From: an uncultured Gemmatimonadota bacterium
Lineage (GTDB): Bacteria > Blakebacterota > Blakebacteria > Blakebacterales > Blakebacteraceae
Direction: 5' to 3'
DNA: 64,000 nucleotides
Assembly (NCBI GenBank): GCA_964637695.1
Contig: CAZWVF010000002.1
Span: 3,445 to 67,444 of the forward strand
The position numbers and the translations under genes are program-made. Shown in pieces: positions 9,911 to 62,705 of this stretch. The notes under the pieces were generated by a model. That model ran no database searches. It saw only the letters and a list, made by a program, of their open reading frames with translations, and had not been told where the DNA came from. Numbering within the stretch: position 1 is the stretch's first letter; every line of letters starts with the position of its first letter.

Positions 9911-11137
9911 TTACAGAACAACGAACCGGCCGAGCAGAAACGACATGATGAAACCGATGACTCCTACCAGGAGTGCGCCTGCGAGTCCTACCGCAAAGGG
10001 CTTAATCCCCACACCCTTGAAGACTTCGAATCTGGTTCCGAGTCCCACTCCTGCCATTGCCGTTCCGAGCAGATACCGGGAACCCCACACACTGCCTATC
10101 TGCTTCGTCAGGCCACTCCACGCTTCGGCGTCGAAAAGACCGAAGGCGGCGCCACTGCCGACGGTTGCATCACCGATTGAGCGGATGATGGTCATTCCCA
10201 CAAAACCGAGCACAAAGATCGGGAAGAGCTTGATAATGCTGACCCTGCCCCCTCTTTCTCCACTGCTGCCATCTCTGGAACGCAGGTGGTAGAATGCCAG
10301 TATCGGCACTACCGCGGCCAGGAAGAGATTACGGGTGAGTTTAGTCACCGTGGCTGCCTTGAATGCAACCTCGTCGTTGAAGACTTCACGGTAGGTCAGC
10401 GCAGCTCCCATTACCTGCGCGGTTTCGTGAATGGCGGTTCCCAGGAAGATCCCGATCTGCTCCGATGTCTGAAGCAGGTATGGAGCCAGATAGGGGTAGA
10501 GGAACATGCCGATAAGTCCGAAGAGAGTGATATTGGCAACCGCATAGGCGACCTCATCCTCTTCAGCTTCAATTGCCGCTGCGGTTGAAACGATGGCCGT
10601 CACACCGCATATGGCGGTACCCGATGCTATCAGCGTACCCAGGCGCTCCGGCAGGTTGAGCATCCTGTTGAACCAGCTGACCAGAATGAGTCCGCCGCTG
10701 ATCGAGGCGACCACTATCGGAATCCCCCATATTCCCAGCTTCACAACATCCATCAGACTCAACTTGATGCCGACCAGTATGATCCCCAGCCGGAGCAGTT
10801 TCGTGACGCTGAACCTGATGCCGCCCTGAAACATTTTCGGAAGGGGAACCATGTTGCCCACGAGCATCCCGACAACGATGGCCATGAGTACCCCTGATAC
10901 CGGACTCGACTTGCCTGCCGGATCGATGCCCTGAAGGCTCAGGAGCTGACGGCCCAGCATTTCTGCCATCGGAACCGCGACCAGCATGATAACCAGAGCC
11001 AGCAGAGCGCCGGGCAGAAGCCCTGGAACGTTTCTCAGGCTTTCCACACCGAACGTACCTTTAACCAGCCTGCTTCCAGAGCTGTCAGAACTCATGCAGG
11101 GGATTTCCTTCCGGAGAAAGATAAAAACCTGTTTCAA
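9911..11137 (-). CDS. yeiH: YeiH/UPF0324-family putative sulfate exporter membrane protein.
   Basis: Polytopic membrane protein with a Cons_hypoth698-like sequence. The real start may be the internal Met at about 11095. Confidence 0.6.
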   Translation of the reverse strand: MKQVFIFLRKEIPCMSSDSSGSRLVKGTFGVESLRNVPGLLPGALLALVIMLVAVPMAEMLGRQLLSLQGIDPAGKSSPVSGVLMAIVVGMLVGNMVPLPKMFQGGIRFSVTKLLRLGIILVGIKLSLMDVVKLGIWGIPIVVASISGGLILVSWFNRMLNLPERLGTLIASGTAICGVTAIVSTAAAIEAEEDEVAYAVANITLFGLIGMFLYPYLAPYLLQTSEQIGIFLGTAIHETAQVMGAALTYREVFNDEVAFKAATVTKLTRNLFLAAVVPILAFYHLRSRDGSSGERGGRVSIIKLFPIFVLGFVGMTIIRSIGDATVGSGAAFGLFDAEAWSGLTKQIGSVWGSRYLLGTAMAGVGLGTRFEVFKGVGIKPFAVGLAGALLVGVIGFIMSFLLGRFVVL

Positions 11138-11144
11138 TAACTAT

Positions 11145-11330
11145 CTAGGAGCCTGTCGGAGTAAGCCACCGGCTGCGGTCTGCGCCGGCAACCGGCCGAC
11201 GGCGTTGGCTTTCGCCGGATGTCCTCAACGTAGCACAGTGGCTACGTTTCCGGGCCTCCGGCTCAGCCGCCTGGTCGGGCCGGCGCCAGAGCAAACCTCG
11301 CGTTCGCCGGTTACTCCGACAGGCTCCTAG
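11145..11330. repeat. MITE-like element copy 1, about 184 bp with perfect 20-bp terminal inverted repeats.
   Basis: TIR CTAGGAGCCTGTCGGAGTAA ... TTACTCCGACAGGCTCCTAG. Identical to 34958..35142 over the full length. Internal palindromes are present, for example cgtagcacagtggctacg. It has no coding capacity. Confidence 0.8.
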
Positions 11331-11426
11331 CCCAATAATTTAGCTTCACTCTGTCTGTTTCGCCACGCTCTATATTCATCACATTTTCACGCATTCAACG
11401 TCTTCCGTGGCTGAGCTCATCCAATC

Positions 11427-11621
11427 TCACTTCGCACGCGCCTCATAGATTACAGCAAGGATACTCTCCGCTACGAGATCCGGCACATCCACATAAAGGT
11501 AATGCGAGGCCCCTTCCGCGACTGTGATCTTGCCATAGCCACCGCTATGCCTCGTCGCCGCGCCTTGCAGGCCGGGCCCGGCATCACTCTCGGTGCCGAC
11601 GTTTGTCACCTGACATGACAC
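11427..11621 (-). pseudogene. C-terminal remnant of an alpha/beta-hydrolase-like gene (truncated).
   Basis: The 64-aa ORF ends ...GASHYLYVDVPDLVAESILAVIYEARAK, resembling the C-terminus of alpha/beta hydrolases (GHF..E.PE.V...I..FL pattern). No N-terminal catalytic part is present. A related fragment lies at 24163..24215. Confidence 0.4.
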
Positions 11622-12361
11622 TAGGCAGATATCTTATCCAACCATTTCTCAATATTCGATGGAACATGAAGTACCAATGCGCGACCCTGTGCTCTCTTCT
11701 TGAGTAATCCTCTATCGCACAACCTTGACGCAGCTTCATGGATTGAAGCATATGTATAGGGCAGCCTATTCTTCAATGCGGTTGCTGAAAGAGGCTGGAG
11801 CAGAACCTGATGCATTATTTCTGCATCAAGTGAAGCACCGAGGATTGAACGGATCCTGAGGTCAGGACAAGCTTTAATGATCCATGAAACAGGACGAATT
11901 GCATCCCTCTTATCAGAAATCTGGTTATGCCAGAAGCCCCATCTCTCGAACAGCTCGAAAGATTCTCTCCGGGCATATTCTGTCAGTATTGGATTGATCG
12001 CGTATTGTGCAAAGAGGACACGTTTACCCTTGAGTGGGCTACAATGTGAAATTGCCTGATCTAACGTTGATGCTGTTGGATTCAATTCAATAGCCACACT
12101 CAAGATTGCTCCTGCAACTGCTGAAAACTGATTTTCAAGAGTCTTCAATTCTTTTGCCAGAAGACGGCCATTTACCAGTTGATGATGTATCGCCAGCCAG
12201 CTCGCGGCAGCCCAGAAGAGACGAGGAGAATCAGAAGCTGCTGAACAAGTACGAGCTAATAGAGATTCCGCAGAGACCGTCACCTGAGCAGGATCCACAT
12301 CAAATCCGACTCCAATCCTGGCCCATTGGGAATAAAGGCAATCTTCAATCGATGATTTCAA
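11621..12361 (-). CDS. HEPN-like protein with an Rx4H motif and a C-terminal wHTH; putative toxin/effector partner of the upstream nucleotidyltransferase.
   Basis: 246 aa containing ERWGFWHNQ (R-x4-H) and a C-terminal helix-turn-helix-like segment (YASIHEAASRLCDRGLLKK). The start overlaps the stop of the upstream NTase (ATGA). Local GC is markedly lower than the surroundings. Confidence 0.4.
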   Translation of the reverse strand: MKSSIEDCLYSQWARIGVGFDVDPAQVTVSAESLLARTCSAASDSPRLFWAAASWLAIHHQLVNGRLLAKELKTLENQFSAVAGAILSVAIELNPTASTLDQAISHCSPLKGKRVLFAQYAINPILTEYARRESFELFERWGFWHNQISDKRDAIRPVSWIIKACPDLRIRSILGASLDAEIMHQVLLQPLSATALKNRLPYTYASIHEAASRLCDRGLLKKRAQGRALVLHVPSNIEKWLDKISA

Positions 12362-12885
12362 TGTTGTTCTAAATAGAGTTCCATCTTATGTGCAGATGGA
12401 GCATCGAACTTAGCAATGCGATCCAACTGCGACCGGACATACTCTATCTCCTCCTCCGTCGGTGACAGCTCCTGCAGATCCGCAATATCTTCTGGTCTGA
12501 GTGAATGGAACTTCAGAAGTATCAGATCCTGTCTGCTCACCGATGAGATTAGAAAGCCACCAAATCGTCCAATTGATTGCAGACGATCGCAGAAATCTGA
12601 AGGAAGCACATCACGCCAGGCTGCTGCTGCATCATTCATCCATTTCTCAGGCAAACCCAGCTCTTCTGCAATTTCCATGATTTCTCTTTGGTACACTGAA
12701 AGCTTGGGATTGGAATAGACTACATCCACATCCAGGGTCCCTCGAATAATCCACCCTGAGAGAATTGCTGCAGCGCTGCCCACAATTACGCATTCCAGGT
12801 CTTCGCAGCGCTCCCCGAGCGCTCGAAAAGCTGTTTCAATCTCATCTTTTAGCATAGTTTTATTATATACTTTTTCCGATAACAA
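12358..12885 (-). CDS. Minimal nucleotidyltransferase (MNT/MntA-like).
   Basis: Pol-beta-type NTase motif VGSAAAILSGW...GTLDVDVV (hG[GS]...DxD) in the N-terminal half. 175 aa. It lies immediately upstream of, and translationally coupled to, the 246-aa HEPN-like gene. Confidence 0.55.
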   Translation of the reverse strand: MLSEKVYNKTMLKDEIETAFRALGERCEDLECVIVGSAAAILSGWIIRGTLDVDVVYSNPKLSVYQREIMEIAEELGLPEKWMNDAAAAWRDVLPSDFCDRLQSIGRFGGFLISSVSRQDLILLKFHSLRPEDIADLQELSPTEEEIEYVRSQLDRIAKFDAPSAHKMELYLEQH

Positions 12886-13195
12886 TCAATGAAAATTCCC
12901 TTCGTTCCACGGATCTGAGGATTTTCCCATTGCTGCAGCACTGGGGGACTGTTCAATCTGCCATCGCAATCCATCCAGAACCTGACCCGGGGAAAATGCT
13001 TTGCCGTATCGATAGTTACGGGCCGGACCTCTCTGCCAGATGCAGATATATAGATCGCGCCCGGCGGCAGCACCAATCCCCTGAATCACAGGTCTATCAC
13101 CTGTTCAGAGACATGAAAAGGACCTGCATCGGCCCGGTGATCACCCGTTCGGACATATGCCCACCATGAGGACACCAGCGCGTGAGTCGCGTGCC

Positions 13196-14098
13196 TTATC
13201 TTCTCTCGGCACTGTATGCCGCCATTTTGTAGACGAGCCTGGCAGCGATGGAATCGGAACTGTGGAATCCTTCGCGCGGGCTCAGCTCGACTACGTCGGT
13301 CCCAACTACATTCTTCTCCCTGAAGAGAGACCGGAGCAGTCTGAGCGTTTCGAACCAGTCGAAGCCACCCGGTACCGGAGTACCCACTGCACCCACCACC
13401 GAAGGGTCGAGACCATCCAGATCGATGGTTATGTAAAGATCCTCCCCCGGCAGAGATCGGAGGATCTGATCGATCTGCTCCCCCACCCTGCCCACAACCT
13501 GGTGAGCCAGGAAGGTCGTTCGCAGGTCACCTTCCAGAAGATGAGCTTCGCTCGAATCCACCGATCTGATGCCCAGAGCAGTCACATGCACGCCCATATC
13601 GTAGATCCTGCGCATCGGACAGGCGTGATTGAAGCGGGAACCGTGATAGGTGTCTCTCAGATCTGCATGTGCATCGATCTGAAGAACACACAGATCGGGC
13701 CAGATTTGCCGGTGCGCCCTGACGAGAGGATAAGTGATAGAGTGTTCTCCCCCCAGAGCCACCAACATGCGTTTTTCATTTATCAAGCCTGCTGCAGTCT
13801 CTTCGACCACCAGTGCGGCAGCTTCCGGATCTGTCGGCAGATCGGGAGCGGGATGGGTTGCAATTCCCCCCACCTCTTCGACCGGCACGAATCCAACCTC
13901 CTCGTCGTAGAACTCTATATGATGACTTGCCTCCACAATAGCGGCCGGTCCTTCCGATGTCCCTCTTTTCCAGGAGCAGGTTATGTCGAGCGGCAGCGGC
14001 AGGACCTGGATCGTACTTTTCTGTGGATCGGACAGATCGGGAGGCAGGTTCAGAAAGTTCGGGAAGGATAGATCGGGAGCCCCTGTCAGGTCGTTCAT
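13196..14098 (-). CDS. speB: Agmatinase / ureohydrolase family.
   Basis: Arginase-family Mn-binding motifs GGEHSIT, DAHADL and DLDGLDP. Confidence 0.8.
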   Translation of the reverse strand: MNDLTGAPDLSFPNFLNLPPDLSDPQKSTIQVLPLPLDITCSWKRGTSEGPAAIVEASHHIEFYDEEVGFVPVEEVGGIATHPAPDLPTDPEAAALVVEETAAGLINEKRMLVALGGEHSITYPLVRAHRQIWPDLCVLQIDAHADLRDTYHGSRFNHACPMRRIYDMGVHVTALGIRSVDSSEAHLLEGDLRTTFLAHQVVGRVGEQIDQILRSLPGEDLYITIDLDGLDPSVVGAVGTPVPGGFDWFETLRLLRSLFREKNVVGTDVVELSPREGFHSSDSIAARLVYKMAAYSAERR

Positions 14099-22355: not shown

Positions 22356-24008
22356 TCCTGCCTGTATTTTCTGCGCTTCTCTTTCATCAACCATGTCGCT
22401 GTGACAGGTGGCCTTTCCGTCATCATCAGCGCTGACGGCAAGAAGGGTCTTTTCGGCCAGTTCAGCGATTTCACCGATCTCCTTCGCTTCACCGGCACCG
22501 AAGAGCTCCAGGTCGCGATTGATCCTGACGGCGCACCAGTCATGACCGCACATCGAGCAGAAGTCTTCATCGACGTCATGATCTTCATCGTGAAACTCTC
22601 TGGCCGTTTCCGGATCAAAGGAGAGTTTTACGTGCTCGCTCCAGTCGAGAGCAGCACGGGCCCTGGTCAAGGCGTCATCCCTGTCACGGGTACCCGGAAT
22701 CCCGAGAGCCACGTCGGCGGCGTGTGCGGCTATCTTGTAGGCGATGCACCCCTGCTTGACATCATCCTTCTTCGGTAGGCTCAGGTGTTCCTTCGGAGTG
22801 ACATAGCAGAGCATCGCCGCACCGTGATAGGCGGCCGCCGTTGCCCCGATGCACGACGTGATATGGTCGTACCCCGGGAAGATGTCGGTCACCAGCGGCC
22901 CCAGAACGTAGAATGGAGCTCCGTGACAGATCCTGCGTGCGTATTTCATGTTGAATTCGATCTGGTCGAACGGAACGTGCCCGGGACCCTCGATCATGAC
23001 CTGGCACCCCCTGGCCCACGCACGCTCGGTCAGTTCCCCGAGCGTCTCCACCTCTCTCAGCTGTGCTTCATCGGTAGCGTCTGAAAGGCCGCCGGGGCGC
23101 AGGCCGTCACCGAGTGAAAAGCCGACATCGTATTCGCGCATGATGTCGCATATTTCGTCGAAGACCTCGTACATTGGATTCTGTTTGTTATGCGCCAGCA
23201 TCCATCTGGCCAGCAGAGATCCGCCCCTGCTAACTATGCCGATCAGGCGATCTTTGAGATATGGCAGGTGCTCCTTCAGCAGTCCCGCATGGATCGTGAA
23301 GAAATCGACACCCTGCCCGGCCTGCTTGACGATCTCGGTAAGAATGTCATCGTAGGTGAGCTCCTCGACACTCCGGCCGATTATCATGGAATAGATCGGC
23401 ACGGTACCAATCGGGACTGTCGCAGTCCGGATGATCGCTTCACGACATTCATCCAGATTCCCGCCCGTAGAAAGGTCCATAGCCGTATCAGCGCCCCACC
23501 GGACCGCCCATTCCAGCTTTTCGACTTCCCTGTCTGTATTGGAGGAAAGAGGTGAAGCCCCCAGGTTTGCGTTGATCTTTGTAGTAGCAGCCCTGCCGAT
23601 GCACATCGGGTCCAGGTTGTAGGACAGGTGCACTTTGTTTGCCGTAATGAGCATTCGACCCGCGGCTATTTCATCCCGGACCTGTTGCGGGGAGAGATGG
23701 GTTTCCCGTTCTGCTGCACGTTCCATCTCCGGAGTAATCATTCCCAGGCGGGCGTATTCGAACTGTGTAACGGCTTTAAACCGATCTGGTGCAACTGCAA
23801 ACTCCTCCCCCCTTTCCCACCCTTCGGGCAGAAAATCCCACGCGGTCCTGTCCGATGGCTCGGGCATCCCCGGCGTATCGGGAGAACTGAACGTATAAGG
23901 TGTACCGATTCGGGGTGGATTGGCAAAACTGCCCGGAGTCGTTCCCAGTTTATCTGTTGAGGGATTATTGCCGTGTGCCGGAATGTTCGTGCTCACAGAG
24001 CACCTCAT
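22338..24008 (-). CDS. thiC: Phosphomethylpyrimidine synthase ThiC (radical SAM).
   Basis: [17 protein letters not shown] and the C-terminal CSMCGHDWC motif. The ORF-track start (24044) lies inside the riboswitch. ATG at 24008..24006 follows the AGGAAAG of the riboswitch 3' end. Confidence 0.85.
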
Positions 24009-24090
24009 GCTTTCCTGCGCCGGTATGATCCGGATCAGGTTCAAGGGTATGCTCTCAGTCCCGCTCCCTGCAGGACACCCCTAGCCTTCT
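24008..24090 (-). ncRNA. TPP riboswitch (THI element) in the thiC 5' leader.
   Basis: Minus-strand sequence cuaGGGGUGuCCugcaGGgaGCgggaCUGAGAgcauACCCuugAACCUGAUCCGGAUcAUaCCGGCGcAGGaAAGC matches the THI-box consensus (GGGGUGC, CUGAGA, ACCUGAUCYGGAUAAUGCCAGCGNAGGGA). The SD-like AGGAAAG lies inside the 3' side. Confidence 0.85.
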
Positions 24091-24162
24091 GATACCTGGT
24101 GCCCTGAATCATAAATCCATCGTAATTCATCCTCCGCTGCATCCGCACCTGCTGCGTTGCGC

Positions 24163-24215
24163 CTCCTCGCCATAGCAACCGCTATGCCTCGTTGCCGCGC
24201 CTGGTCGGAGCGGCG
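24163..24215. repeat. Short fragment duplicated from the alpha/beta-hydrolase remnant at 11427..11621.
   Basis: The 32-nt stretch gccatagcAaccgctatgcctcgtTgccgcgcc matches 11540..11571 with 2 mismatches. The minus-strand translation GAATRHSGCYG parallels GAATRHSGGYG, then diverges to a stop. Confidence 0.45.
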
Positions 24216-24537
24216 CAGCGAAGTTCTCAGTTATGCAACGGACTTCTGACTCAGGACACACGCACTATACAAGATAGAGATTTATCACTGATCGGGCAAC
24301 CATCAGGAGTCCTATCTAGTTCCCGTCTGGAGGTTTCCCGCCGGCAACAGCCGGACTGCTCATCCTTTGATGAGGACTCCGGATGGGTATGACCCATAAT
24401 AATGATCTCGATTTCGGGAGCAGCGGGTGCAGCAGGAAGGCCTTGCCTGCTGCAACTCTTTTTCACAGTGTCATACCAGTATACACAATTATATTCCAGC
24501 ACTTCATTCTGCCATACTACATCAAACGAGGTCGCCC

Positions 24538-34803: not shown

Positions 34804-34880
34804 CTGGTACCCCGAACAGGATTCGAACCTGTGACCTCATGCTCCGGAGGCATGCGCTCTATCCAACTGAGCTACCGGGG
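34804..34880 (-). tRNA. tRNA-Arg (anticodon CCG).
   Basis: Minus-strand GCCCCGGTAGCTCAGTTGGATAGAGCGCATGCCTCCGGAGCATGAGGTCACAGGTTCGAATCCTGTTCGGGGTACCA forms a cloverleaf with anticodon loop CUCCGGA and an encoded CCA. The acceptor stem has G.U pairs at 1:72 and 7:66. Confidence 0.85.
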
Positions 34881-34957
34881 CAGGTTTCTGTTTATCGAGG
34901 GAGCCAATTAACTGCCATATGCAGTGATTAGAAACATTCAATTATTATTTATAGTGT

Positions 34958-35142
34958 CTAGGAGCCTGTCGGAGTAAGCCACCGGCTGCGGTCTGCGCCG
35001 GCAACCGGCCGACGGCGTTGGCTTTCGCCGGATGTCCTCAACGTAGCACAGTGGCTACGTTTCCGGGCCTCCGGCTCAGCCGCCTGGTCGGGCCGGCGCC
35101 AGAGCAAACCTCGCGTTCGCCGGTTACTCCGACAGGCTCCTA
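34958..35142. repeat. MITE-like element copy 2 (identical to 11145..11330).
   Basis: The same 184-bp sequence with 20-bp TIRs. It lies between the 3' end of the HTH gene, whose TAG stop overlaps the element terminus, and the 5' side of tRNA-Arg(CCG). Confidence 0.8.
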
Positions 35143-35373
35143 ACGCGGTAGTACTTCTGACGCAGTTTCAGATTGAGCAATATTCAGCTCACTCTCCCTC
35201 TCACCACCCGTAGACAGGAATTCCTCGAATTCGTCCTTCATAATCAGATAGCGGCCGCCGACCCGCAGGCCGGGCACAATTCCGCTCTTGATATACTTCA
35301 GTACTGTCTGGCGCGACACACCCAGTATCTCTGCTACTTCGCTGACGAAATAGACCCGCCGCTCGACATCCAT
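35140..35373 (-). CDS. Excisionase-family (HTH_17/MerR-like) DNA-binding protein.
   Basis: VYFVSEVAEILGVSRQTVLKYIKSGIVPGLRVGGRYLIMKDEFEEFL. Start taken at the internal Met (MDVERR). The ORF track gives 35433. Confidence 0.6.
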   Translation of the reverse strand: MDVERRVYFVSEVAEILGVSRQTVLKYIKSGIVPGLRVGGRYLIMKDEFEEFLSTGGERESELNIAQSETASEVLPR

Positions 35374-44855: not shown

Positions 44856-46142
44856 TCAGCTTTCAGACTCACGTGCCAGTGCACGCCAGCCGATGTCCCT
44901 TCTGTAGTAGACACCCTCGAAATCGATCTCGGCACAACCACTGTATGCAAGATCAACCGCAGAGGCAATAGTATCGCTCATGGCAGTGACGCCCAGAACG
45001 CGTCCGCCGGCAGTGATGACCTGTCCATCACACCCGGCGGTGCCGGCGTGGAAAACTACCAGATCCTCCCTGCCTGACAGATTCTCCAGGCCGTTTATCT
45101 GAAAGCCCTTTTTATATGAACCGGGATAACCACCTGAGGCCATCACCACGCAAACGGCAGCACCCCGGTCAACCGAGAGTGCATCGGGTGAGAGTTCACC
45201 ATTGGCTGCATCGAGCAGGGCCACGGCCAGATCGCCCTTCACGAGAGGCAATACTACCTGCGATTCCGGGTCTCCAAAGCGGCAGTTGAATTCGATCACG
45301 TATGGATCTCCCAACTCATCAATCATCAGGCCGGCATAGATCACCCCGCGATAGTCGATGCCTTCGGCGGTAAAAATATCGAGCAGAGGCTTCATGACCC
45401 GAGAGTTGGTTTTTTCCATCACTTCCGGTGTGACGACCGGTGCGGGAGCATAAGCACCCATCCCGCCCGTATTGAGTCCGGTGTCCCCTTCGCCGACCGC
45501 TTTGTGATCCTGGCTCGAGACGAGGCTTACCAGATTGATGCCATCGGTAATCGCCAGGATCGATGCCTCTTCACCCTTCAGCATCTCCTCGATTACAACC
45601 ATATCACCGGCATCTCCGAACTGTCTTTCATCCATGATCTCACGGATGCTTCTGACCGCCTCCTGCCTGTCGGCGCACACGATCGATCCTTTCCCCGCGG
45701 CCAGACCCGAGGCCTTCACGACAATTCCCCCTTCACCCTCCTCCAGCCAGGCTATCGCCCGGGCGGAATCTGTGAATGTACGGTAAGCCGATGTCGGGAT
45801 TCCTGCACGATCCATCAGATCTTTTGCCCACGCCTTCGATCCCTCCAGCCGTGCTCCTTCAGCACCGGGACCGAAGCAGGCGATCCCCGCATCACGGATA
45901 CGATCCGAGAGCCCCAGGGTCAGGGGCAGTTCGGGGCCGACTACGACGAGGTCTACCTCTTCCTCAATAGCCAGGGAGGTGATGCCGTCCAGATCATCAA
46001 CAGCAACATTTCTGAGTGCGGCATCCGGGGCCATGCCCACGTTGCCGGGAGCTGCGATTATGGAAGAGACAGAAGGACATCGAGCCAGGCTCCAGACGAG
46101 CGTATGCTCACGGCCGCCGGAGCCGACAACCAGAACTTTCAT
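44856..46142 (-). CDS. purD: Phosphoribosylamine--glycine ligase.
   Basis: MKVLVVGSGGREHTLVWSL N-terminus, ATP-grasp domain. 428 aa. Confidence 0.9.
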   Translation of the reverse strand: MKVLVVGSGGREHTLVWSLARCPSVSSIIAAPGNVGMAPDAALRNVAVDDLDGITSLAIEEEVDLVVVGPELPLTLGLSDRIRDAGIACFGPGAEGARLEGSKAWAKDLMDRAGIPTSAYRTFTDSARAIAWLEEGEGGIVVKASGLAAGKGSIVCADRQEAVRSIREIMDERQFGDAGDMVVIEEMLKGEEASILAITDGINLVSLVSSQDHKAVGEGDTGLNTGGMGAYAPAPVVTPEVMEKTNSRVMKPLLDIFTAEGIDYRGVIYAGLMIDELGDPYVIEFNCRFGDPESQVVLPLVKGDLAVALLDAANGELSPDALSVDRGAAVCVVMASGGYPGSYKKGFQINGLENLSGREDLVVFHAGTAGCDGQVITAGGRVLGVTAMSDTIASAVDLAYSGCAEIDFEGVYYRRDIGWRALARESES

Positions 46143-46186
46143 GCAGGCACCATCTTGTTGAGAGGGATCGTTAAGGTCACCCTGTT

Positions 46187-46813
46187 CTACTTGCCAAAGC
46201 CTATCCCCAAACGAACGATCGGTCCAGTACTCGATACCTGGTTGAATGCAGGAGGCACGCCAGACACTGACAATGCATTGCCGTTATACTGAGCATATCC
46301 GGCTTCGAGCATGAGACTGAGCGGCAGTGCATCGAGGCTGATAATGAATCCGAGGTAGGCCTGGAATCCGATATCACCATTGGCCTCCAGGGTGTAACCG
46401 GCCGACACAGATTGAGGCAGGACATCCCAGAACGTAAAGTTCAGTCCGCCTGCGAAATACAGACCGAACCTCTCTCTTGCCCCCAGATTGATATATACAG
46501 AAGTGTATTGCAGATCGAAGGTTTCATTCCCGTCAGGACTCTCCCACTGAACCTTATCCATTGCCATGAAGCCGGGGCTGATAGTTAGCCCGAATATGTC
46601 GAATCCCACTTCGACTGACTTTATTCTTCGCCAGTCGAGTGATTGCGAATCGAAACCTCGGGACCAATTCCCCTGAGACTGACCGGCGAACACAGCGATA
46701 TAAGGATTGAAGATCTGAGCTTTCGCCGGCGCAGGAATCGATAAGGCAATGAAAAGAAGTGCGGCAGCGAGCGATGCTTTCACTTTATAACTGTTAAAAT
46801 GACCTCTGAGTAT
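46187..46813 (-). CDS. Outer-membrane beta-barrel (OmpA-like N-terminal/porin family) protein.
   Basis: Signal peptide (ASLAAALLFIALSIPAPAKAQ). Alternating amphipathic beta-strands with a C-terminal aromatic residue pattern (GIGFGK). Start set at the internal Met. Confidence 0.5.
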   Translation of the reverse strand: MLRGHFNSYKVKASLAAALLFIALSIPAPAKAQIFNPYIAVFAGQSQGNWSRGFDSQSLDWRRIKSVEVGFDIFGLTISPGFMAMDKVQWESPDGNETFDLQYTSVYINLGARERFGLYFAGGLNFTFWDVLPQSVSAGYTLEANGDIGFQAYLGFIISLDALPLSLMLEAGYAQYNGNALSVSGVPPAFNQVSSTGPIVRLGIGFGK

Positions 46814-46999
46814 CATGCATTCCTCGATGATTGTCGGGCCCTGTCGGGTGGCCCTTTTGGAAATAACGGATAACAATCGAGTTATTCCATTTCTTTAAAG
46901 CTATCCCATTGTCACATCGACCGCAACGAACCCTTCAAAACGGCTGCGATCATAAGGTAAACGGTTGAAACGGAGTAGTTGTGCACACTTGAAGAAGAA

Positions 47000-47076
47000 T
47001 GGCGGCCCTAGGAGGACTCGAACCCCCGACTCGCGGTTTAGGAAACCGCTGCTCTATCCACCTGAGCTATAGGGCC
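47000..47076 (-). tRNA. tRNA-Arg (anticodon CCU).
   Basis: Minus-strand GGCCCTATAGCTCAGGTGGATAGAGCAGCGGTTTCCTAAACCGCGAGTCGGGGGTTCGAGTCCTCCTAGGGCCGCCA. A perfect 7-bp acceptor stem, anticodon loop UUCCUAA and an encoded CCA. Confidence 0.9.
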
Positions 47077-47620
47077 ACGTAGGTTTTATGCGGGTTTGCG
47101 AGGCACTGTGGTCCTCGCGATTTCCCATTACACGTCTATTACACATTCGAATCCAGCCCCAGAGCAGCGGTCTCCGTTACACGTTGAGATCCCGTGCCGA
47201 ACTGAATCCGGTCCATAGCATCCACTAAGGACTCATCAGTAAGATGTGCATAACGTTAGGTAGTGGTCAACTCCTTGTGTCCAAGAATCTTGGCCATCTT
47301 GGTCAGTGGCACTTTTGCCTGACCAAACAGGAAGCACATGTGTGCCTCTTATGCCGATATCAGCATAATGCCTCAGGTCATGAAAGCTCCAATCTGCTAA
47401 AATTGAATGAGCAGATGGGCTCGTGCAAACGGCAGCAGCGTGGACATACAAGTTCATAGTCATTGTATTGACCAAGCACATTCTTTCCAGTAGGCTCTCC
47501 AGGTTCAACAGGTGCGGGCACACTATCAAGGATTCTCTTATTGCTGATATGAATCATTGTGTCCTGCCGCTTTCCCTGTAAAACACCTCTGAAACCATAA
47601 CATAGCATGGAGTAAATCCC

Positions 47621-48223
47621 ATGGAAAATATCGCAAGTATAGTTGCTGTTCTGGGAGTGTGGTTTGCCCTCATGGCCGTCCTGGCTCTTTGTGTTGAGGC
47701 TGTGATTGCAGGATTGAAACTTCCATTAACTGGTCTACGGGGAACAGCTTCCCCGGATGATGTACTTAATGAGGTCAGTGTTTGGCTTCCAAAGGATGAA
47801 ACAGATGCACATCAAGCCAGGATTAAAGCACTCAATAGTGCCCTCGAGGCTATTAAGGCAACGGTATTACCTGCCACTACATCACAAGAAGATTTTCCAT
47901 CTGAGGTTAATAAAGCCGTAGGTAAATATGTCAAAAGTGAAGCAAATAGAAGAGCCTACATTCGACTATTAGCTGTTGTATTTGGAATTGGATTCGCCTT
48001 CCTGTTCCGAATTGACACTGTTCAAATTTTATCTCCCCTAATTGATTTCAAATCAACATTCAGCATCTGGAAAGAAGCATTAACATCAGAATCAACCTTT
48101 GTAGTGGGTGTGATTCTGAGTGGAGTTGCTGCCAGTGCTGGGTCGAGTTTCTGGCACGATAAATCCGCCCAGTTGCGGCTGTTGAAAACTGCCAGTGAGG
48201 AGATAAAAAAAGTAACTAAGTAG
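47621..48223 (+). CDS. Hypothetical membrane protein in a low-GC region.
   Basis: 200 aa with three predicted TM segments and no recognisable family. Local GC is lower than the flanks. Confidence 0.4.
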   Translation: MENIASIVAVLGVWFALMAVLALCVEAVIAGLKLPLTGLRGTASPDDVLNEVSVWLPKDETDAHQARIKALNSALEAIKATVLPATTSQEDFPSEVNKAVGKYVKSEANRRAYIRLLAVVFGIGFAFLFRIDTVQILSPLIDFKSTFSIWKEALTSESTFVVGVILSGVAASAGSSFWHDKSAQLRLLKTASEEIKKVTK

Positions 48224-48288
48224 CTTTAGCCTATGGACCGTGAGTCAAACAAACTCGGTATACTTACAGGAATAATGGACTCGGTTTA

Positions 48289-49626
48289 TTACTCACCGGT
48301 TATGCCCTGCGATCCTGATTCAACTGCTTCCAGGATTGCTCTGATATTCTCTGCCGGAGTATCAAGGGCGATGTCGGCACCAGATGTAGAGAGTATGAAG
48401 CGAGGATCATCCTGCCTGTCTTCAAGGATCTTCTTGCATTGGCTCTTTATCTCTTCAGGTGTGAATTTCCCAATGTTCGGACCATCAAGACCACCCAGCA
48501 TTGTCAACTCATCCCCTATTATCTCGCGAGCAACGGAGAAACTGTCACGATGGTCAATGACGAATCCCAATACATTCGGCAGGTCAATTAAAAGTTCCAG
48601 AGCAGAGAGGAATTTGGCGCCTGTATGGTGAATAACAACCGGGCCATTGATTTGCGGCAAAACTTCATTAAATACCGGAAGAGAAATTGTCTCTGCAATC
48701 TCAAGGCTGACCACTGATGGATTGAGAAAGACAACGGGCAGAGCTATAAAATCGGCCCCGCGAGCAAACTGGGCATTTGCCCAGTTGATGAAGAAAGTTC
48801 GTGTTATCTCAAGAAGACTTTCAGTTCCTGCGTGATTGAACAGAATTGTCTGCAGCCATCCTTCCAGCCCCATTATCATCATAGGAAGATCAACCGGACT
48901 CATGGCTATTCCTGCAACCATGGTCTCCTTGCCATGTTCCGAAACGAGAAGATCGAGTGCTTCAAGCATATACTGGAGTCCAGGGCAGGAATCGATATCA
49001 GGCACAGTTAGATCTGCAATTTCGTCTGAAGAAGATATTGCGGGTTGCCGGAGATTCGGAGGCTGGGATTCAAAATGTTCACACCGTGAACCAAAAGCCT
49101 CTCCTTCATATGGCAGTACGAAAGGCATGAAGACGATATCCGCCCTGAGTAATTTGATGTTCTCGGCCGAAGTATACATCATGGCCGATGCGCCTATGAT
49201 TTTGGCTCCGACTTCGACCGCTTTATTGACGAACTCTACAGGTGGTACGTCGTTGCCCAGATCGTGAACCTCCCACCTTGTTGCTTTCAGGAACATGACA
49301 ACCATACGGCGGCCGAGAGCGTGGAAGTCAGCCTCGATATTCCCCAGAACGACCGGTCCCAGCAGCAGATCTGGTTTCGAATCAGCAGCTCGATCGCTCG
49401 CTATCTGTTCGAGTATATCCCCGGCGATTTTTGCAGCAATGTAACTTTGAGCAAGTGAAATATCCTCCCTCATCCACCGTTCACCTACTTCTTTGAGCAC
49501 CGGATCGAGGATTTCATCCATAAGCCGGTCATACCCATTGATTCCTGCCCACTCCTTCATCCGTTCGACTGCTGTCGACCTGTCTCCGGCATCTATTTTC
49601 TGGATCAGTTCTTCAATTAGTTCCAT
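48289..49626 (-). CDS. Fusion of a cobalamin-binding corrinoid domain and a URO-D-like (MtaA/CmuA-family) methyltransferase domain.
   Basis: N-terminal B12-binding cap plus Rossmann domain with DxHxxG (EADFHALGRRMVVMFL...GASAMM). C-terminal uroporphyrinogen-decarboxylase-like methyltransferase fold. Confidence 0.6.
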   Translation of the reverse strand: MELIEELIQKIDAGDRSTAVERMKEWAGINGYDRLMDEILDPVLKEVGERWMREDISLAQSYIAAKIAGDILEQIASDRAADSKPDLLLGPVVLGNIEADFHALGRRMVVMFLKATRWEVHDLGNDVPPVEFVNKAVEVGAKIIGASAMMYTSAENIKLLRADIVFMPFVLPYEGEAFGSRCEHFESQPPNLRQPAISSSDEIADLTVPDIDSCPGLQYMLEALDLLVSEHGKETMVAGIAMSPVDLPMMIMGLEGWLQTILFNHAGTESLLEITRTFFINWANAQFARGADFIALPVVFLNPSVVSLEIAETISLPVFNEVLPQINGPVVIHHTGAKFLSALELLIDLPNVLGFVIDHRDSFSVAREIIGDELTMLGGLDGPNIGKFTPEEIKSQCKKILEDRQDDPRFILSTSGADIALDTPAENIRAILEAVESGSQGITGE

Positions 49627-49991
49627 CGTGGAACCTCATGAAAAGGACAGATTTGAGGTGCCTTTTCAACCGCGGGATAATAGAAGATGATAACTTACAT
49701 AACTTCGTTATTCCAAATCCGTTGTCATCAACGGACCGGAAAAAGATGGTACCGGAAAAGAGTCAGGAATTCATCAGTTCCTCTCATATATGCATGATTC
49801 CCTTTTACATGCATAATCCGGCCCGGACATTGAACCTCTCCTGATCGCATATGAGCACTTCTTCACTCTACCGAGAGAAGGGAGTGTCGTGGCCATGGAA
49901 TATTAATAAAAAGACTTTAGAGTCTGATTTGCAGATTGAGCCATCTGCTGTTATGTTCAGAGTAACTTTTACACTGAAAGGCAAACTGGAG

Positions 49992-51365
49992 ATGAGTGAG
50001 GAAAGACAACCTACAGTTGATGAACTGCTGGCCAAAGCATACCAGCCGGCCAAAGACGCCATGCGACTCCACCCCTTTTACCGGGGCAAGATCGAGGTCG
50101 TCCCGAAGTGCCAGATCCGCGACTTCAATGACTTCGCTATCTGGTATACCCCGGGAGTGGCCGAGCCGTGCAAGGACATTGCAGAGAATCCCGACAAGGT
50201 ATTCGAGCACACGAACAAGGCCAACATGATCGCCGTGGTGAGCGATGGCTCGCGGGTACTGGGTCTGGGCAACATCGGGGCCGAGGCCGCCATCCCGGTC
50301 ATGGAGGGCAAGGGGATCCTCTTCAAGTACCTGGGCGGTGTTGACGCTTTCCCCATCTGCTTGAATACGCAGGACAAGGAAGAGATCATCCAGATCGTCA
50401 AGGCCATTCAGCCCTGTTTCGGCGGTATCAACCTCGAAGACATCGAGAAGCCGAAGTGTTTCGAGATCCTGGACACGCTGCGCGAAGAGTGCCACATTCC
50501 GGTCTGGCACGACGACCAGCAGGGCACGGCGACGGTGACCGTGGCCGGTGTCATCAACGCACTCAAGGTTGTGGGCAAGGATAGAGAGAAGGTCAAGACC
50601 GTCCTCTACGGCGCCGGTGCCTCCAACGCACGGATCGCCCGGATGCTTATCACATGGGGCCTCAACGCCGACCAGATGCTCCTCTACGACTCGAAGGGCC
50701 CCCTCCACATGGGTCGGACCGAGTTCCAGGAGACCGAGCCGGAGAAGTGGTATCTCTGTCAGAACACGAACGCCGAGAACATAGATGTCCCCTTCGAGGA
50801 AGGGATCGAAAACGCTGACATGCTGATAGCCCTTTCCCGCTCCGGCCCCGACATCATCGACAAGTCGGCCGTGGCCAAGATGGCCAAGGACTCGATCGTC
50901 TTCGCCTGTGCCAACCCGATACCCGAGATCTGGCCGTGGGACGCGAAGGAAGCCGGTGCCCGCATCATGGCAACCGGTCGTTCCGACTTCGACAACCAGG
51001 TCAACAACTCTCTCGGGTTCCCGGGCATCTTCCGCGGCACCCTCGATGTGGCCGCCTCAACGATCACCGACGAGATGTGCATCGCGGCCGCCGATGAACT
51101 GGCCAGATGCGCCGAGGACAAGGGGATTCACGAGGGTTACATCATTCCGACGATGGATGACTGGGAAGTCTTCCCGCGTGAAGCTGTGGCCGTAGGTCAG
51201 AAGGCCATCGAACAGGGCCTTGCCCGTATAGAACTCACACCCGAGCAGGCCTATGAGACTGCCGAACGGATCATCAAGCGGGCACGTGAGGAGACTATCT
51301 GGCGGATGAAGGAAGGATTCATCCCCACAGCCCCGGAGGATGCGAAGCTGACAACCGGGGGTTGA
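49992..51365 (+). CDS. maeB: NAD(P)-dependent malic enzyme (short type).
   Basis: Malic enzyme motifs WYTPGVAEPC, VSDGSRVLGLGNIGA and FEDI.KP.CFE.LD. The ORF track starts at 49851. An internal start at 49992 (MSEERQ) or 49953 (MFRV) gives the canonical N-terminus. Confidence 0.8.
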   Translation: MSEERQPTVDELLAKAYQPAKDAMRLHPFYRGKIEVVPKCQIRDFNDFAIWYTPGVAEPCKDIAENPDKVFEHTNKANMIAVVSDGSRVLGLGNIGAEAAIPVMEGKGILFKYLGGVDAFPICLNTQDKEEIIQIVKAIQPCFGGINLEDIEKPKCFEILDTLREECHIPVWHDDQQGTATVTVAGVINALKVVGKDREKVKTVLYGAGASNARIARMLITWGLNADQMLLYDSKGPLHMGRTEFQETEPEKWYLCQNTNAENIDVPFEEGIENADMLIALSRSGPDIIDKSAVAKMAKDSIVFACANPIPEIWPWDAKEAGARIMATGRSDFDNQVNNSLGFPGIFRGTLDVAASTITDEMCIAAADELARCAEDKGIHEGYIIPTMDDWEVFPREAVAVGQKAIEQGLARIELTPEQAYETAERIIKRAREETIWRMKEGFIPTAPEDAKLTTGG

Positions 51366-51645
51366 TTACCGTATAACAATTCGGGCTGATTTCCGATTGC
51401 AGTGATCGACATAGGTAGACCCTCACGGGTTTTCCCTGTCACACCACCGTGCGTACGGGTCCGTACACGGCGGTTCGGTTGGTTACTCGAACAGCGTGTC
51501 CTTCAGAGAAGGTAGGCCGAGGGACCGGAAGAAGTCGTTGGGCAGGGCAAAGCTGAGAGCGGGACTCCGGCAGAGGTGCCACATACTGTGGCAGCTGCCG
51601 GCGGTCTGAGCCGCCAGATCACGGCTGACACCGCGTTTGACCAGC

Positions 51646-53931
51646 TCACCGAACCGGGTCCTTCCCCGCTTCCACAGCCTTACGGATAGCCGCGCCCAGC
51701 TCTTTCAGTATAAAGGGCTTCCTTATATAATCCCTGATACCCAGTTCTCCCATTTTCTCGGGTGTAACAACCTCGCTGAAACCGCTTGTGAGAATAACCG
51801 GTATATCATCTCTCAATTTCATGACCTCCTCAATTAATTCCGTGCCTGTCATGTCCGGCATGATCTGGTCGGTTATGATTAAATCAAATCGATCGGGAGA
51901 TTTCTTGAACATTTCCAGAGCTTCTACACTGCTGATCATGACAGTGACGTCATAACCGAAATCCTGGAGCATTTCCCTGCCAAGATCAGCGATCGCCTCT
52001 TCGTCGTCCACAAAGAGAATCCGTTCCTGTCCTTTCAGATCGACTTCTTCTTCGGGGTCTTCGACTTCCGTTTCGATATCAACCCACGGCAAATAGACCT
52101 TGAAAGAGGTACCTTCTCCCGGTTCACTGTTAACAGTGATCTCTCCGCCGTGGCTGGCAACTATACCGTGAACCACGGACAGCCCCAGACCCGTACCTTC
52201 GCCTGTTTCACGTGTAGTGAAAAACGGCTCGAAAATCCTGTCTGCTATCTCCTTTTCCATACCACAACCAGTATCACTGACGGTCAGTCTGACATGCCGG
52301 CCTTCTTTGAGGTTCGGATGTGTCGTTATAAAATCTGCATCCACGTCAAACCGTTCCAGTTTTACTTCCAGCACTCCACTTGTATCGCGCATCGCCTGGT
52401 AAGCATTCGTACAGAGGTTCATCAACACCTGGTGCATCTGTGAAGGATCAGCGAGAATGGCACCTGCATCGGGACTGATATCCTGGCGAATCTCGATTGT
52501 CGACGGCAGAGTTGCATGAAGCAGTTTCAAGACCTCTTTGATGAGGAGCTGGAATTCAACGATAGTCTTCTCCTGTTCAACCTCCCTGCTGAAAACCAGG
52601 ATCTGTTTCACCAGATCCCTTGCGCGGTTGGCAGCTTTGTTCACATTGCTGAGTTTGGCATAGGCATCACTGTCCGGTGCCAGCTGGCTCTGAACCATCC
52701 CGAGGTATCCGAATATGGGTGTGAGGATATTGTTGAAGTCATGTGCGATACCGCCTGCCAGAGTACCTATTGTCTCCAGTCTCTGCGATCTTCTCAATTG
52801 GGTTTCAAGCTGTATTTTCTCCTGCGATGTTTTCTCTCTCTCGGCAACCTCCCTTTCAAGTTTGGCCAATACCTGTTCGAGCTCTTCGGTGCGCTCTCTC
52901 ACCTTCATTTCAAGTTGCTCCCGATGGTACTTCAATTCCTCTTCGGCCTGTTTCCTTTCGGTGATATCACGGATGATACCTACTGAACCGAGAAATTCCC
53001 GTGAATCCGCATCGTCCCCGCTCACATACAGTCCTGAACTGCTTACTTCCATAACTCTGGCACTATCCACCACAGTTGAAAGCTGGCCCTGGATAGTATC
53101 GATATCTCCCTTTATCTTTAACATTACTTCCAGGTTCCTGGTCCTGCGGTCATCGGTTCTTCTTTCATCGAACAGTTTGGGAGCCAGGGTATCACCTGTT
53201 TCACTGCCTCTGAGTGAAGGTAGAAGATCTGAGCGACCGGGAGGTGTTTCTTCCGGGGCTGCTATCAGCTCTCTGAAGTTCTTCCCGATTAATTCCTCAG
53301 GTGTATAACCGAGGTTCTGTATTGCATCATTCAAAAATGTGAAATTCCCATTCTTATCTATCCTGTAAACAATATCCGGGATGGTCTGGACTACAGTTCT
53401 GAACCTTTCTTCGATTGCCTTTAACTCACTCAACTTTGTTTCGAGTGTTGTGTTGGCCTGTGCCAGTTGGTCCTGTATCTCCACCAACTGACGATTATTA
53501 GTTACCGAATTGATGTATGTTGAGAGGAGGATATTGAGAATACGGTCACGATCAGGAAGAGAACCAGGCACAGGTACGGTGCAGTCGAGACAATCGATCA
53601 CGATTTCACTGCTGTACGGTCTGAACAGCAGGCCGTCCGCTCCGCATTCCAGGCTCTTTACAATTTCTGAAGTTTCCAGCAGCGGCATGACAAGTATCAC
53701 ACGCAGATCTTTTAAACAGTTGTTCCCTTTTATTTCGCGGCAGAGTTGAAAACCGTCCATACCGGGCATTTGCAGATCACTGATGACGATATCGGGCTTG
53801 ATCCTGTCCAGACAGGCAAGCGCCTCCATCCCGCTATGGGTGGCATGAACCTTATATCCAATCCCTTCAAGCAGAGATTTGAGCTTCACCGCCTGCGCAG
53901 GGCTGTCCTGGATTATCAGTACATGTTTCAT
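51646..53931 (-). CDS. Hybrid sensor histidine kinase with N- and C-terminal receiver domains and PAS.
   Basis: REC ([12 protein letters not shown]), PAS, HisKA ([14 protein letters not shown]), HATPase_c, and a C-terminal REC ([13 protein letters not shown]). Confidence 0.8.
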
Positions 53932-53979
53932 TCACATATCTCCCAGGACTCCTGTATCACCCGATCGAATTTTTAAGTG

Positions 53980-55089
53980 TCAGACCACAACTCTGTCGTT
54001 GTCGCTCATGTCCTGATACCGGTGCTGTATCTCATACACTTTTTCCAGGTTATCCAGAAACAGATCGACTACCTGAGGGTCGAAATGGCTGCCCCTCTTG
54101 TTTTTTACTATCTCACACGCAGCTTCATTTGGCATTGCTTTTTTATAGGGACGTTTCGTCGTGACAGCGTCGAATACGTCGGCAACTGCACAGATGCGTC
54201 CCATAATGGGGATATCCTCACCTTTCAACCCGTTAGGGTACCCATTTCCATTCCACTGCTCATGATGTGAAATGGCGATCACTTCACCCGCTTTCAATAA
54301 CTCCGATCTGGAATCACCGAGTATCCTGGCCCCCATGATTGTGTGCTGCTGCATGATCCCCCACTCTTCGGCATCCAGTTTACCGGGTTTAAACAGGATT
54401 TCTTCGGGGATGCCTATCTTCCCTACATCGTGCATCGGGCTGGCATGCTTCAGAGCCTCTGAATCACCGGGGGAGAGGTTCATGGCATTTCCCAGCATGG
54501 AACAGTAGTAACTGACACGGTTGATATGCGCTGCCGTGTTGGTGTCTTTGTATTCCGCAGCAACCGCCAGACGGTGGATCGTCTCCAGATAGGCTTCGTG
54601 GGTCTGGCGCTGTGCTATCGCCATTTCATCGAGCGTTTTACGAAGGGCTTCGGTCCTCTTGTCTACCAGAGCCTCCAGCTCAGCCTGGTATCGTCTCAGT
54701 TCATCCTGGTGTTCCTTGACTTTGAGAAGAGAGGCAGTCCGCACCTGCAGTTCGGTCAGGTCCACCGGCTTGGCGATAAAATCATTTGCACCGGCTTTGA
54801 CGGCCCTGAGACGGTCTTCTTTCCCGGAGAGCGCCGTTACCATGATAATGGGAAGATCCTGTGTTTCGGGGTGTTCCCTGATCCTGCGGACTACTTCAAA
54901 CCCGTCCATGCCCGGCATGTTCACATCCATAAGGACCAGGTCGATGTCCAGCTTCGACATTGCCAGAGCTCCTACACCATCAGAGGCGACCTCAGCACTG
55001 TGGCCCAGGGACTCAACCATCTCCTTGAAGACCGCCCTGTTCAGCTCTTCATCATCAACGATCAGGATACGATGCCGGTTTTTCTTCAC
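53980..55089 (-). CDS. Response regulator with an HD-GYP output domain (RpfG-like).
   Basis: REC (LVLMDVNMPGMDG) plus HD-GYP (MHDVGKIG...HHEQWNGNGYP). Confidence 0.8.
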   Translation of the reverse strand: MKKNRHRILIVDDEELNRAVFKEMVESLGHSAEVASDGVGALAMSKLDIDLVLMDVNMPGMDGFEVVRRIREHPETQDLPIIMVTALSGKEDRLRAVKAGANDFIAKPVDLTELQVRTASLLKVKEHQDELRRYQAELEALVDKRTEALRKTLDEMAIAQRQTHEAYLETIHRLAVAAEYKDTNTAAHINRVSYYCSMLGNAMNLSPGDSEALKHASPMHDVGKIGIPEEILFKPGKLDAEEWGIMQQHTIMGARILGDSRSELLKAGEVIAISHHEQWNGNGYPNGLKGEDIPIMGRICAVADVFDAVTTKRPYKKAMPNEAACEIVKNKRGSHFDPQVVDLFLDNLEKVYEIQHRYQDMSDNDRVVV

Positions 55090-55502
55090 CCTTGAACCTG
55101 TTTCTCAGCTCCTTCAATTCTCAATTGATCCAGAACACCGGGTATTTTATCGAACTCGGTCGATTTGTCGAAGAAATAACCGGCACCAAGTTCGAAGCAT
55201 TTGGTTCTGTACTGTTCGTACGGATAGTTGGTCAACACTATGACTGTTGTCTTAGGGTTGCTCCTGCTGATGTTCCGCAAAACATCCAGACCACTGCCAA
55301 GGGGCATTTTGATGTCCAGGATGACCACCTCCGGTGCCATTTCCCTGACAACCCTGGTTCCATCCAGTGCGTTCTCCGCTTCACCGACAACGCACACCTC
55401 GTCGAGACTGGATAAGAGCTCTGTTAATCTTGTCCGGATGATTTCAGAATCGTCTATGACAACTACATCCATCACACTCTCTCTGGCTCTGGTCAGTATC
55501 AA
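55086..55502 (-). CDS. Single-domain CheY-like response regulator.
   Basis: 138-aa receiver domain (VVILDIKMPLGSG). Overlaps the upstream gene by 4 nt. Confidence 0.75.
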   Translation of the reverse strand: MILTRARESVMDVVVIDDSEIIRTRLTELLSSLDEVCVVGEAENALDGTRVVREMAPEVVILDIKMPLGSGLDVLRNISRSNPKTTVIVLTNYPYEQYRTKCFELGAGYFFDKSTEFDKIPGVLDQLRIEGAEKQVQG

Positions 55503-55649
55503 GAATCTCTCTTCCGTCGCTGGATTTCATCTTTTCCGTGAACTCCCTCACCGGATCATACCCGGCTCATGCTGTGCGGAGTATCAGACGGATTCTGAAA
55601 TTGATGTAGGATAATCGCCCACGTACTTGTAGGGCTTTGTCCTACAAGT

Positions 55650-60121: not shown

Positions 60122-60357
60122 CTTTGATCACACTCCTGTATCAAGATCCATATAAATCCTTGTTTCTATAATTACTGTGATTTTACATCAGGTACGGGCT
60201 TATGACAATTGGCCGAAAAATCGCAGTGTGAAGATGTAATCGCATGGTTGCATTGAGTAGCAAATGATATGAAAATCTGTATCGGTATTGCGAAATAGAC
60301 TGTCGTCACTTACTTGCTTTATTGCGATGAAACATCCACTTATGGGAGCACCAGGAA

Positions 60358-62649: not shown

Positions 62650-62705
62650 AGTTTCTGGATATCGGGGTTTCTACTGTTTCCCAATTGACGACTGTGTAAT
62701 AACCT

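Follow-up and report, generated by a model that had tools for sequence, protein, structure and literature searches.

A 180-bp non-coding repeat with IS1182-type termini at two sites in an uncultured Gemmatimonadota bacterium

A short, GC-rich sequence occurs twice, letter for letter, in a 64,000-nucleotide stretch of DNA from an uncultured Gemmatimonadota bacterium (GenBank assembly GCA_964637695.1, contig CAZWVF010000002.1; the whole stretch is hereafter the window). The locus raises three questions: what kind of element this is, whether the identity of its copies reveals a recent jump, and which enzyme could have moved it. A sequence-only reading had described two identical 184-bp MITE-like copies with perfect 20-bp terminal inverted repeats (TIRs), and took their identity to imply recent mobilization by a transposase encoded elsewhere.

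Anatomy and identity of the two copies

A MAFFT alignment and a repeat search of the whole window gave 100% identity over 186 nt, between 11144-11329 and 34957-35142, and the search returned a single 186-nt family with two members. The full identity read earlier is therefore upheld, while its length is not: the identical stretch is 186 nt long, and the element proper, which runs from GGAGCC to GGCTCC with TA on either side, measures 180 bp. Outside the 186 nt, similarity ends at once, and the flanks are unrelated on both sides. Because the flanks diverge immediately, a larger segmental duplication, named by the sequence-only reading as an alternative, was rejected. A chance origin of the repeat was also rejected: the 20-mer CTAGGAGCCTGTCGGAGTAA has four occurrences in the window, one for each end of each copy, versus 0.01 expected by chance.

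This 20-mer matches copy 1 at 20/20 positions at each end and copy 2 at 20/20 on the left and 19/20 on the right, figures that take in the CTA/TAG flanks besides a 17-nt core. Perfect 20-bp TIRs thus describe copy 1 but not the right end of copy 2, while the core, GGAGCCTGTCGGAGTAA, is perfect at all four ends. The flanks read CTA...TAG for copy 1 and CTA...TAA for copy 2. The element is non-coding and GC-rich, as had been noted (69% GC versus 54% for the window); its sole open reading frame, of 49 amino acids (49 aa), is an artefact of the GC-rich hairpin. A length of 180 bp, inside the range of ~50-500 bp for such elements, and the lack of a gene are those of a MITE. The features of the two loci are as follows.

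11148..11327, + strand: MITE copy 1, 180 bp, defined by its identity to copy 2, its long hairpin and its presence in sibling assemblies
11148..11164, + strand: left TIR of copy 1 (GGAGCCTGTCGGAGTAA), identical to the left TIR of a full-length IS1182-family element (L103, see below)
11311..11327, - strand: right TIR of copy 1, from the TIR match
11146..11147, no strand: left TA of copy 1, putative target-site duplication in a CTAG target, read from the sequence and flank statistics
11328..11329, no strand: right TA of copy 1, putative target-site duplication, from the sequence and flank statistics
34961..35140, + strand: MITE copy 2, 180 bp, between the HTH_17 gene and tRNA-Arg(CCG), from the alignment and repeat search
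34961..34977, + strand: left TIR of copy 2, from the TIR match
35124..35140, - strand: right TIR of copy 2, from the TIR match
34959..34960, no strand: left TA of copy 2, read from the sequence
35141..35142, no strand: right TA of copy 2, which with base 35140 forms the minus-strand TAG stop of the HTH gene, from the sequence
9911..11095, - strand: yeiH-family (PF03601) gene, downstream of copy 1 (context)
35140..35373, - strand: HTH_17 (excisionase-family) gene, 77 aa, whose stop codon is the insertion target (context)
34805..34881, - strand: tRNA-Arg(CCG), on the minus strand downstream of copy 2 (context)

Exact-protein look-ups turned up several sibling assemblies, and all of them have both insertions. 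The HTH copy was recovered in L001-L003, L129, L130, and L146, in contigs that break at or before mid-element; in L001, L002, and L129, it equals the window sequence as far as the contigs reach, i.e., to the element center. Relatives with 81-92% protein identity carry no element at either locus. Copy 2 is absent between HTH_17 and tRNA-Arg in L122-L126, and copy 1 is absent upstream of yeiH in L148 and L149, in each case with diverged junctions. The insertions therefore post-date the splits from those relatives.

In four siblings (L119, L120, L121, and L127), three bases of the yeiH copy (G/A, G/A, and C/A) depart from the window sequence within identical flanks. The HTH copy, as read in L001, L002, and L129, agrees with the window, so that the two copies are not identical in these assemblies. 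The claim that perfect identity implies recent mobilization does not survive this comparison, and, given the three SNPs in the sibling yeiH copies, the identity seen in the window is no robust evidence of a very recent jump. It may instead reflect gene conversion, a strain difference, or assembly repeat collapse. We regard it as an even call whether the repeat, real in itself, owes its perfect identity to an assembly or polishing artefact (repeat collapse) or to gene conversion, in which case the identity would say nothing about recent transposition. The sibling SNPs speak for such an origin, as do the short-read contigs, which in 5/5 assemblies get no further than the middle of the HTH copy; against it, the window may stem from another strain with truly identical copies. 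This reading concerns the identity of the copies alone and is compatible with an IS1182-derived MITE as the explanation of the element itself. As a separate matter, the two copies form a pair of direct repeats with a spacing of 23.8 kb and could mediate deletion or inversion-free recombination of the segment between them.

Neighboring genes and the long hairpin

Copy 1 lies in the 5' region of yeiH, where the sequence-only reading had placed it: it starts ~50 nt upstream of the ATG at 11095 and lies downstream of a low-GC stretch with three small co-directional genes. This islet (11331-13204, 47-53% GC) encodes a DUF6036 nucleotidyltransferase, a 246-aa protein, and a 64-aa protein. In L148 and L149, whose YeiH is 92% identical, an arginase gene lies 98 nt from yeiH, and both the islet and copy 1 are missing. 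The far edge of the islet was examined for a second TIR, which a MITE-bounded composite would have, and none was found. A short segment of ~80% identity (11529-11582 and 24166-24219) links the 64-aa reading frame beside copy 1 with a spot ~75 nt from a TPP riboswitch (23995-24092, minus strand, 65 bits in Rfam); its 37-nt core, GCCATAGCCACCGCTATGCCTCGTCGCCGCGCCT, contains a CATAGC/GCTATG hairpin. Further along, a second tRNA gene, tRNA-Arg(CCT) at 47000-47076, is followed by long stretches of 44-51% GC (about 46000-63000) in a ~56% GC background; a genomic island may have integrated at this tRNA.

Copy 2 is separated from the downstream tRNA-Arg(CCG) by 76 nt and not by the 78 nt given earlier, and its other end meets the HTH_17 gene exactly at the stop codon. 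Read on the minus strand, the gene ends ...CCG CGT TA|G GAG CC..., so that its TAG stop is made of the flanking TA, i.e., the target dinucleotide, and the first G of the element. The homologues of the HTH protein are 76-77 aa long (11 aligned), and 10/11 end in LPR at the same aligned position, like the window protein; the exception, P0002, ends in LPL. Given this shared length and ending, the stop codon pre-existed, and the 77-aa protein was left unchanged by the insertion; at least one TA is, therefore, target DNA. The earlier statement that copy 2 provides the stop codon is overstated: the element supplies only the G of TAG, while the TA belongs to the target. Copy 2 is a neat example of an element that inserted into a stop codon and restored it.

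In two relatives, L123 and L126, the HTH_17 gene runs into the tRNA gene: its final 10 nt (CCC CGG TAG) double as the first nucleotides of tRNA-Arg(CCG) (L123 3225-3234). In the window lineage, 258 nt separate the two genes (34805-35152). The 3' end of the HTH gene (CTACCGCGTTAG) resembles a degenerate duplicate of the tRNA 5' end. In L122, the gap between HTH_17 and tRNA-Arg holds a C-terminal remnant of a response regulator.

The element as a whole is a near-palindrome that folds into one long imperfect hairpin. The single-stranded DNA fold has a dG of -68.1 kcal/mol (z = -9.9), and the RNA folds reach -121.8 kcal/mol for the plus strand and -126.9 kcal/mol for the minus strand (z about -10). 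The internal hairpins described earlier are represented by a small central hairpin, although the fold extends to the whole element and not to the center alone. In an alignment of seven diverged copies, the center (columns 63-107) and an outer stretch at each end do not vary, apart from three changes in the left end that each affect one copy; substitutions are concentrated halfway along each arm.

Could the element have been kept for this fold? As a selected RNA or DNA structure, it would act as a REP-, ERIC-, or Correia-like regulatory element, a terminator, an insulator, or an sRNA, with mobility secondary or extinct. The stability of the fold and the invariance of the center and both termini agree with such a role, as does the position of both copies, directly upstream of a same-strand gene (yeiH, tRNA-Arg) and downstream of co-oriented genes. 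Searches for a known structured RNA, the alternative offered by the sequence-only reading, gave a different answer: at the gathering threshold of Rfam, neither copy matches any family, and the best permissive hit, BjrC68, scores 16.3 bits versus a gathering score of 39. RNAalifold found compensatory changes in 0/69 predicted pairs, with 10 cells broken, a weak test on only seven close copies. An intrinsic-terminator scan around both copies detected no U-tract terminator, and a scan for the sigma-70 consensus in the same regions gave one promoter-like match versus 0.4 expected, i.e., chance level; this lone site has its -35 in the TIR and its -10 in the flank and points at tRNA-Arg. Selection for the fold is, in our judgment, decidedly unlikely. 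The simplest account of the long hairpin is a palindromic origin of the element, which yields such a fold without selection. Effects of the copies on the expression of yeiH or tRNA-Arg are possible but speculative.

Termini, target site, and source of mobility

The family is dispersed well beyond the window. A metagenome scan with one element end retrieved 16 stretches, and, since known copy-1 contigs were missed, the counts that follow are lower bounds. At least nine further distinct flanks were found in the VAOY, VAPA, VAPB, and VAPC sediment assemblies, so that the element is not limited to the two copies in the window; counting these two, the family occupies at least 11 different sites. 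Two additional copies each were found in Ga0315534 and in SDBT01, whose accession is cited in papers that deal with metagenomes of deep-sea and marine sediments. Metagenome copies differ from the window sequence by 0-5 substitutions, with more in the SDBT01 and Ga0315534 copies, and include internally deleted derivatives of 91 and 88 bp. Among genomes, a Zixiibacteriota MAG (L074) carries a ~95% identical copy flanked by CTA...TAA, and a Gemmatimonadota MAG (L007) carries a 64-bp deleted derivative. The earlier identification as a MITE is borne out: the element is small, non-coding, bounded by TIRs, flanked by TA, and present in multiple copies at unrelated sites.

The TIR itself is more widespread than the element. 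A search for exact GGAGCCTGTCGGAGTAA in one genome per species returned at least 115 stretches. Among the matches listed, exact TIRs are preceded by CTA in 84/116 cases, and complete elements of at least 62 bp are followed by TA in 34/37. Mostly, a second, inverted TIR lies 33-270 nt away, followed by TAG or TAA, and the internal sequences are mutually unrelated. The labels of the MAGs concerned cover more than ten phyla: Pseudomonadota, Myxococcales, Desulfarculales, Dehalococcoidia, Methylomirabilia, Rokubacteria, Gemmatimonadota, Zixiibacteriota, Planctomycetota, Leptolyngbyaceae cyanobacterium, and Acidobacteria. One distinct family of ~170 nt was observed in dozens of contigs of the JAZDHW MAG (L011, L022, L034, L037, and others) and of Desulfarculus/Deltaproteobacteria MAGs (L023, L030, and L083); it opens with a 33-nt TIR-inverted-TIR mini-palindrome, followed by three further hairpins and, at its end, a degenerate TIR (TCTCCGACACRCACYTAG).

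The family assignment comes from a full-length element with the same termini in an Acidobacteria MAG (L103). Here, the 17-nt TIRs (17/17 and 16/17) bound a 1645-bp element flanked by CTA...TAG, the insertion signature also seen at the window copies (CTA...TAG and CTA...TAA). Its 470-aa reading frame reaches 368 bits against the NCBIfam model NF033551, IS1182 family transposase, for which the cutoff is 270, and also carries Pfam DUF772, DDE_Tnp_1, and DDE_Tnp_1_6; its closest annotated relatives are IS1182-family genes at ~50% identity. Supporting evidence that the TIRs match those of an IS1182-family element comes from L056 and L147. In L056, the remnant of an IS1182-like transposase N-terminus begins 63 nt after a TIR, and the source MAG holds dozens of TIR-bearing short elements. 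Similarly, an annotated IS1182 on a Bradyrhizobium septentrionale plasmid has related ends, CTAGGAGCTTGTCTGG... and ...CCAGACGGGCTCCTAG (in longer form, CTAGGAGCTTGTCTGGATA and TATCTGGACGGGCTCCTAG), and in 14/14 full-length copies on plasmids the alignment runs from the first C through to the last G; the element is flanked by CTAG...CTAG. The window and the 16 family-bearing metagenome loci yielded neither an IS1182 transposase (by tblastn) nor any full-length element bounded by these TIRs. With no transposase in the window, the element would need one supplied from elsewhere, in agreement with the sequence-only reading. A blastn search of the element against plasmids gave no match, and a TIR scan of viral contigs gave one chance match, without CTA and without a partner TIR.

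The flanks allow the target to be read in some detail. TA is found at both ends of both window copies and of nearly all complete relatives; some older copies have TG or TT in its place. Where the flanking tetranucleotides differ (CTA...TAA in copy 2, L074, L117, and L092; TTA...TAT in L072; GTA...TAG in L118), the outermost base alone varies, and the inner G and C never do, a pattern that fits a 2-bp TA duplication with a preference for CTAG and not a 4-bp duplication. At CTAG targets, both fit, i.e., a 2-bp TA around an element GGAGCC...GGCTCC or a 4-bp CTAG around an element GAGCC...GGCTC; the Bradyrhizobium copies, all in CTAG, are uninformative on this point. TA and CTAG are also palindromic and formally readable as an extension of the TIR. 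At the HTH and YeiH homologue loci of relatives, the element is absent, and the junctions have diverged or hold other insertions, and no clean pair of filled and empty alleles was obtained from them. On balance, the flanks point to a probable 2-bp TA duplication. Regarding the IS1182 target-site rule, we found only tables of direct-repeat lengths in the literature, which give 4 bp for ISPse1, an IS1182 member of Paracoccus (PMC3281130), and 4 bp for an ISMac2-derived MITE (PMC3852290). The published 4 bp and the 2 bp suggested here would be reconciled if CTAG were read as the direct repeat. In one contig (L111 122-160), two abutting TIR-bearing elements share a single TA (...GACAGGCTCC TA GGAGCCTGTC...), as expected if one element had inserted into the TA flanking the other.

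The explanation that best fits these observations, and that we consider very probably correct, is that each copy is a non-autonomous MITE derived from, and mobilized in trans by, an IS1182-family DDE transposase. Such a transposase would recognize the 17-nt TIRs (GGAGCCTGTCGGAGTAA), move the 180-bp element, and integrate it at TA, preferentially in CTAG (more loosely YTAR), with the TA duplicated on integration. The window would then hold two old insertions common to the population, one in the spacer upstream of yeiH and one in the TAG stop of HTH_17, which was regenerated. Of this account, the anatomy, the TIR identity with a full-length IS1182-family element, the TA/CTAG flanks, the dispersal, and the absence from orthologous loci of relatives are observed; mobilization in trans, the 2-bp duplication, and any present-day activity are inferred.

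A derivation from IS630/Tc1-mariner elements, with an IS630-family transposase as the mobilizing enzyme, is highly improbable: TA duplication within CTAG is the classical IS630 signature, and the TA flanks and strong CTAG context agree with it, but in L103 the gene physically bounded by the identical TIR encodes an IS1182-family transposase, and in L056 the TIR precedes an IS1182-like N-terminus, the annotated IS1182 has related ends and CTAG flanks, and an incidental look beside the TIRs revealed no IS630-type gene. A more ambitious combination of ideas, built on the IS1182 assignment, is unlikely as a whole. It holds that the CTAGGAGCCTGTCGGAGTAA terminus would define an undescribed MITE superfamily, with short elements of 33-270 bp in many phyla driven by one IS1182 clade that integrates at TA in CTAG like IS630/Tc1, and that the window copies, with their invariant center and outward-facing ends beside yeiH and tRNA-Arg, would have been co-opted as insulators or hybrid-promoter elements.

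Significance and comparison with known systems

The two repeats are an ordinary kind of bacterial repeat and represent no new type of system, and the element opens no new biological question. What is gained over the sequence-only reading is the assignment to the IS1182 family and a target signature for the element. The main weight of the finding falls on annotation and assembly. The element breaks short-read contigs, which end mid-HTH copy in every short-read assembly examined, and it can lend repeat copies a false appearance of identity. Gene callers, too, can be misled: they may call the 49-aa reading frame or apparent C-terminal extensions. In addition, an IS1182 clade with a wide distribution among uncultivated bacteria of sediment and groundwater gains a concrete signature, with GGAGCCTGTCGGAGTAA as the TIR and TA in CTAG as the target.

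Comparable short elements are known from other bacteria. The Correia repeat-enclosed elements of Neisseria and IS630-derived MITEs such as RUP are ~100-160 bp long, with TIRs, TA duplication, and hairpins, are often intergenic by gene starts or ends, and can alter expression. Both the termini and the probable transposase family of the window element differ from theirs.

Full-length IS1182-family elements have the same type of TIR (GGAGCYTGTC...) and CTAG flanks, e.g., the pBs1S1b element encoding WP_166202952.1 (Bradyrhizobium septentrionale) and ISPse1 (Paracoccus), and the L103 element combines the exact 17-nt TIR with an NF033551 transposase. Unlike these, the window element is 180 bp long, geneless, and cannot move by itself. 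The L103 transposase shares only ~50% identity with the annotated plasmid IS1182 transposases, and the direct repeats of ISPse1 are 4 bp long (PMC3281130), versus the 2 bp suggested for the window element. The nearest parallel in kind is found in Methanosarcina acetivorans, where IS1182-derived MITEs of 160 and 169 bp, with inverted repeats of 25-26 nt, are partnered by ISMac2 (PMC3852290). Like the window element, they are non-coding IS1182 derivatives of ~160-180 bp with long TIRs and multiple copies; they differ in their archaeal host, their unrelated sequence, their direct repeats of 4 or 0 bp, and the presence of the partner IS in the same genome (PMC3852290).
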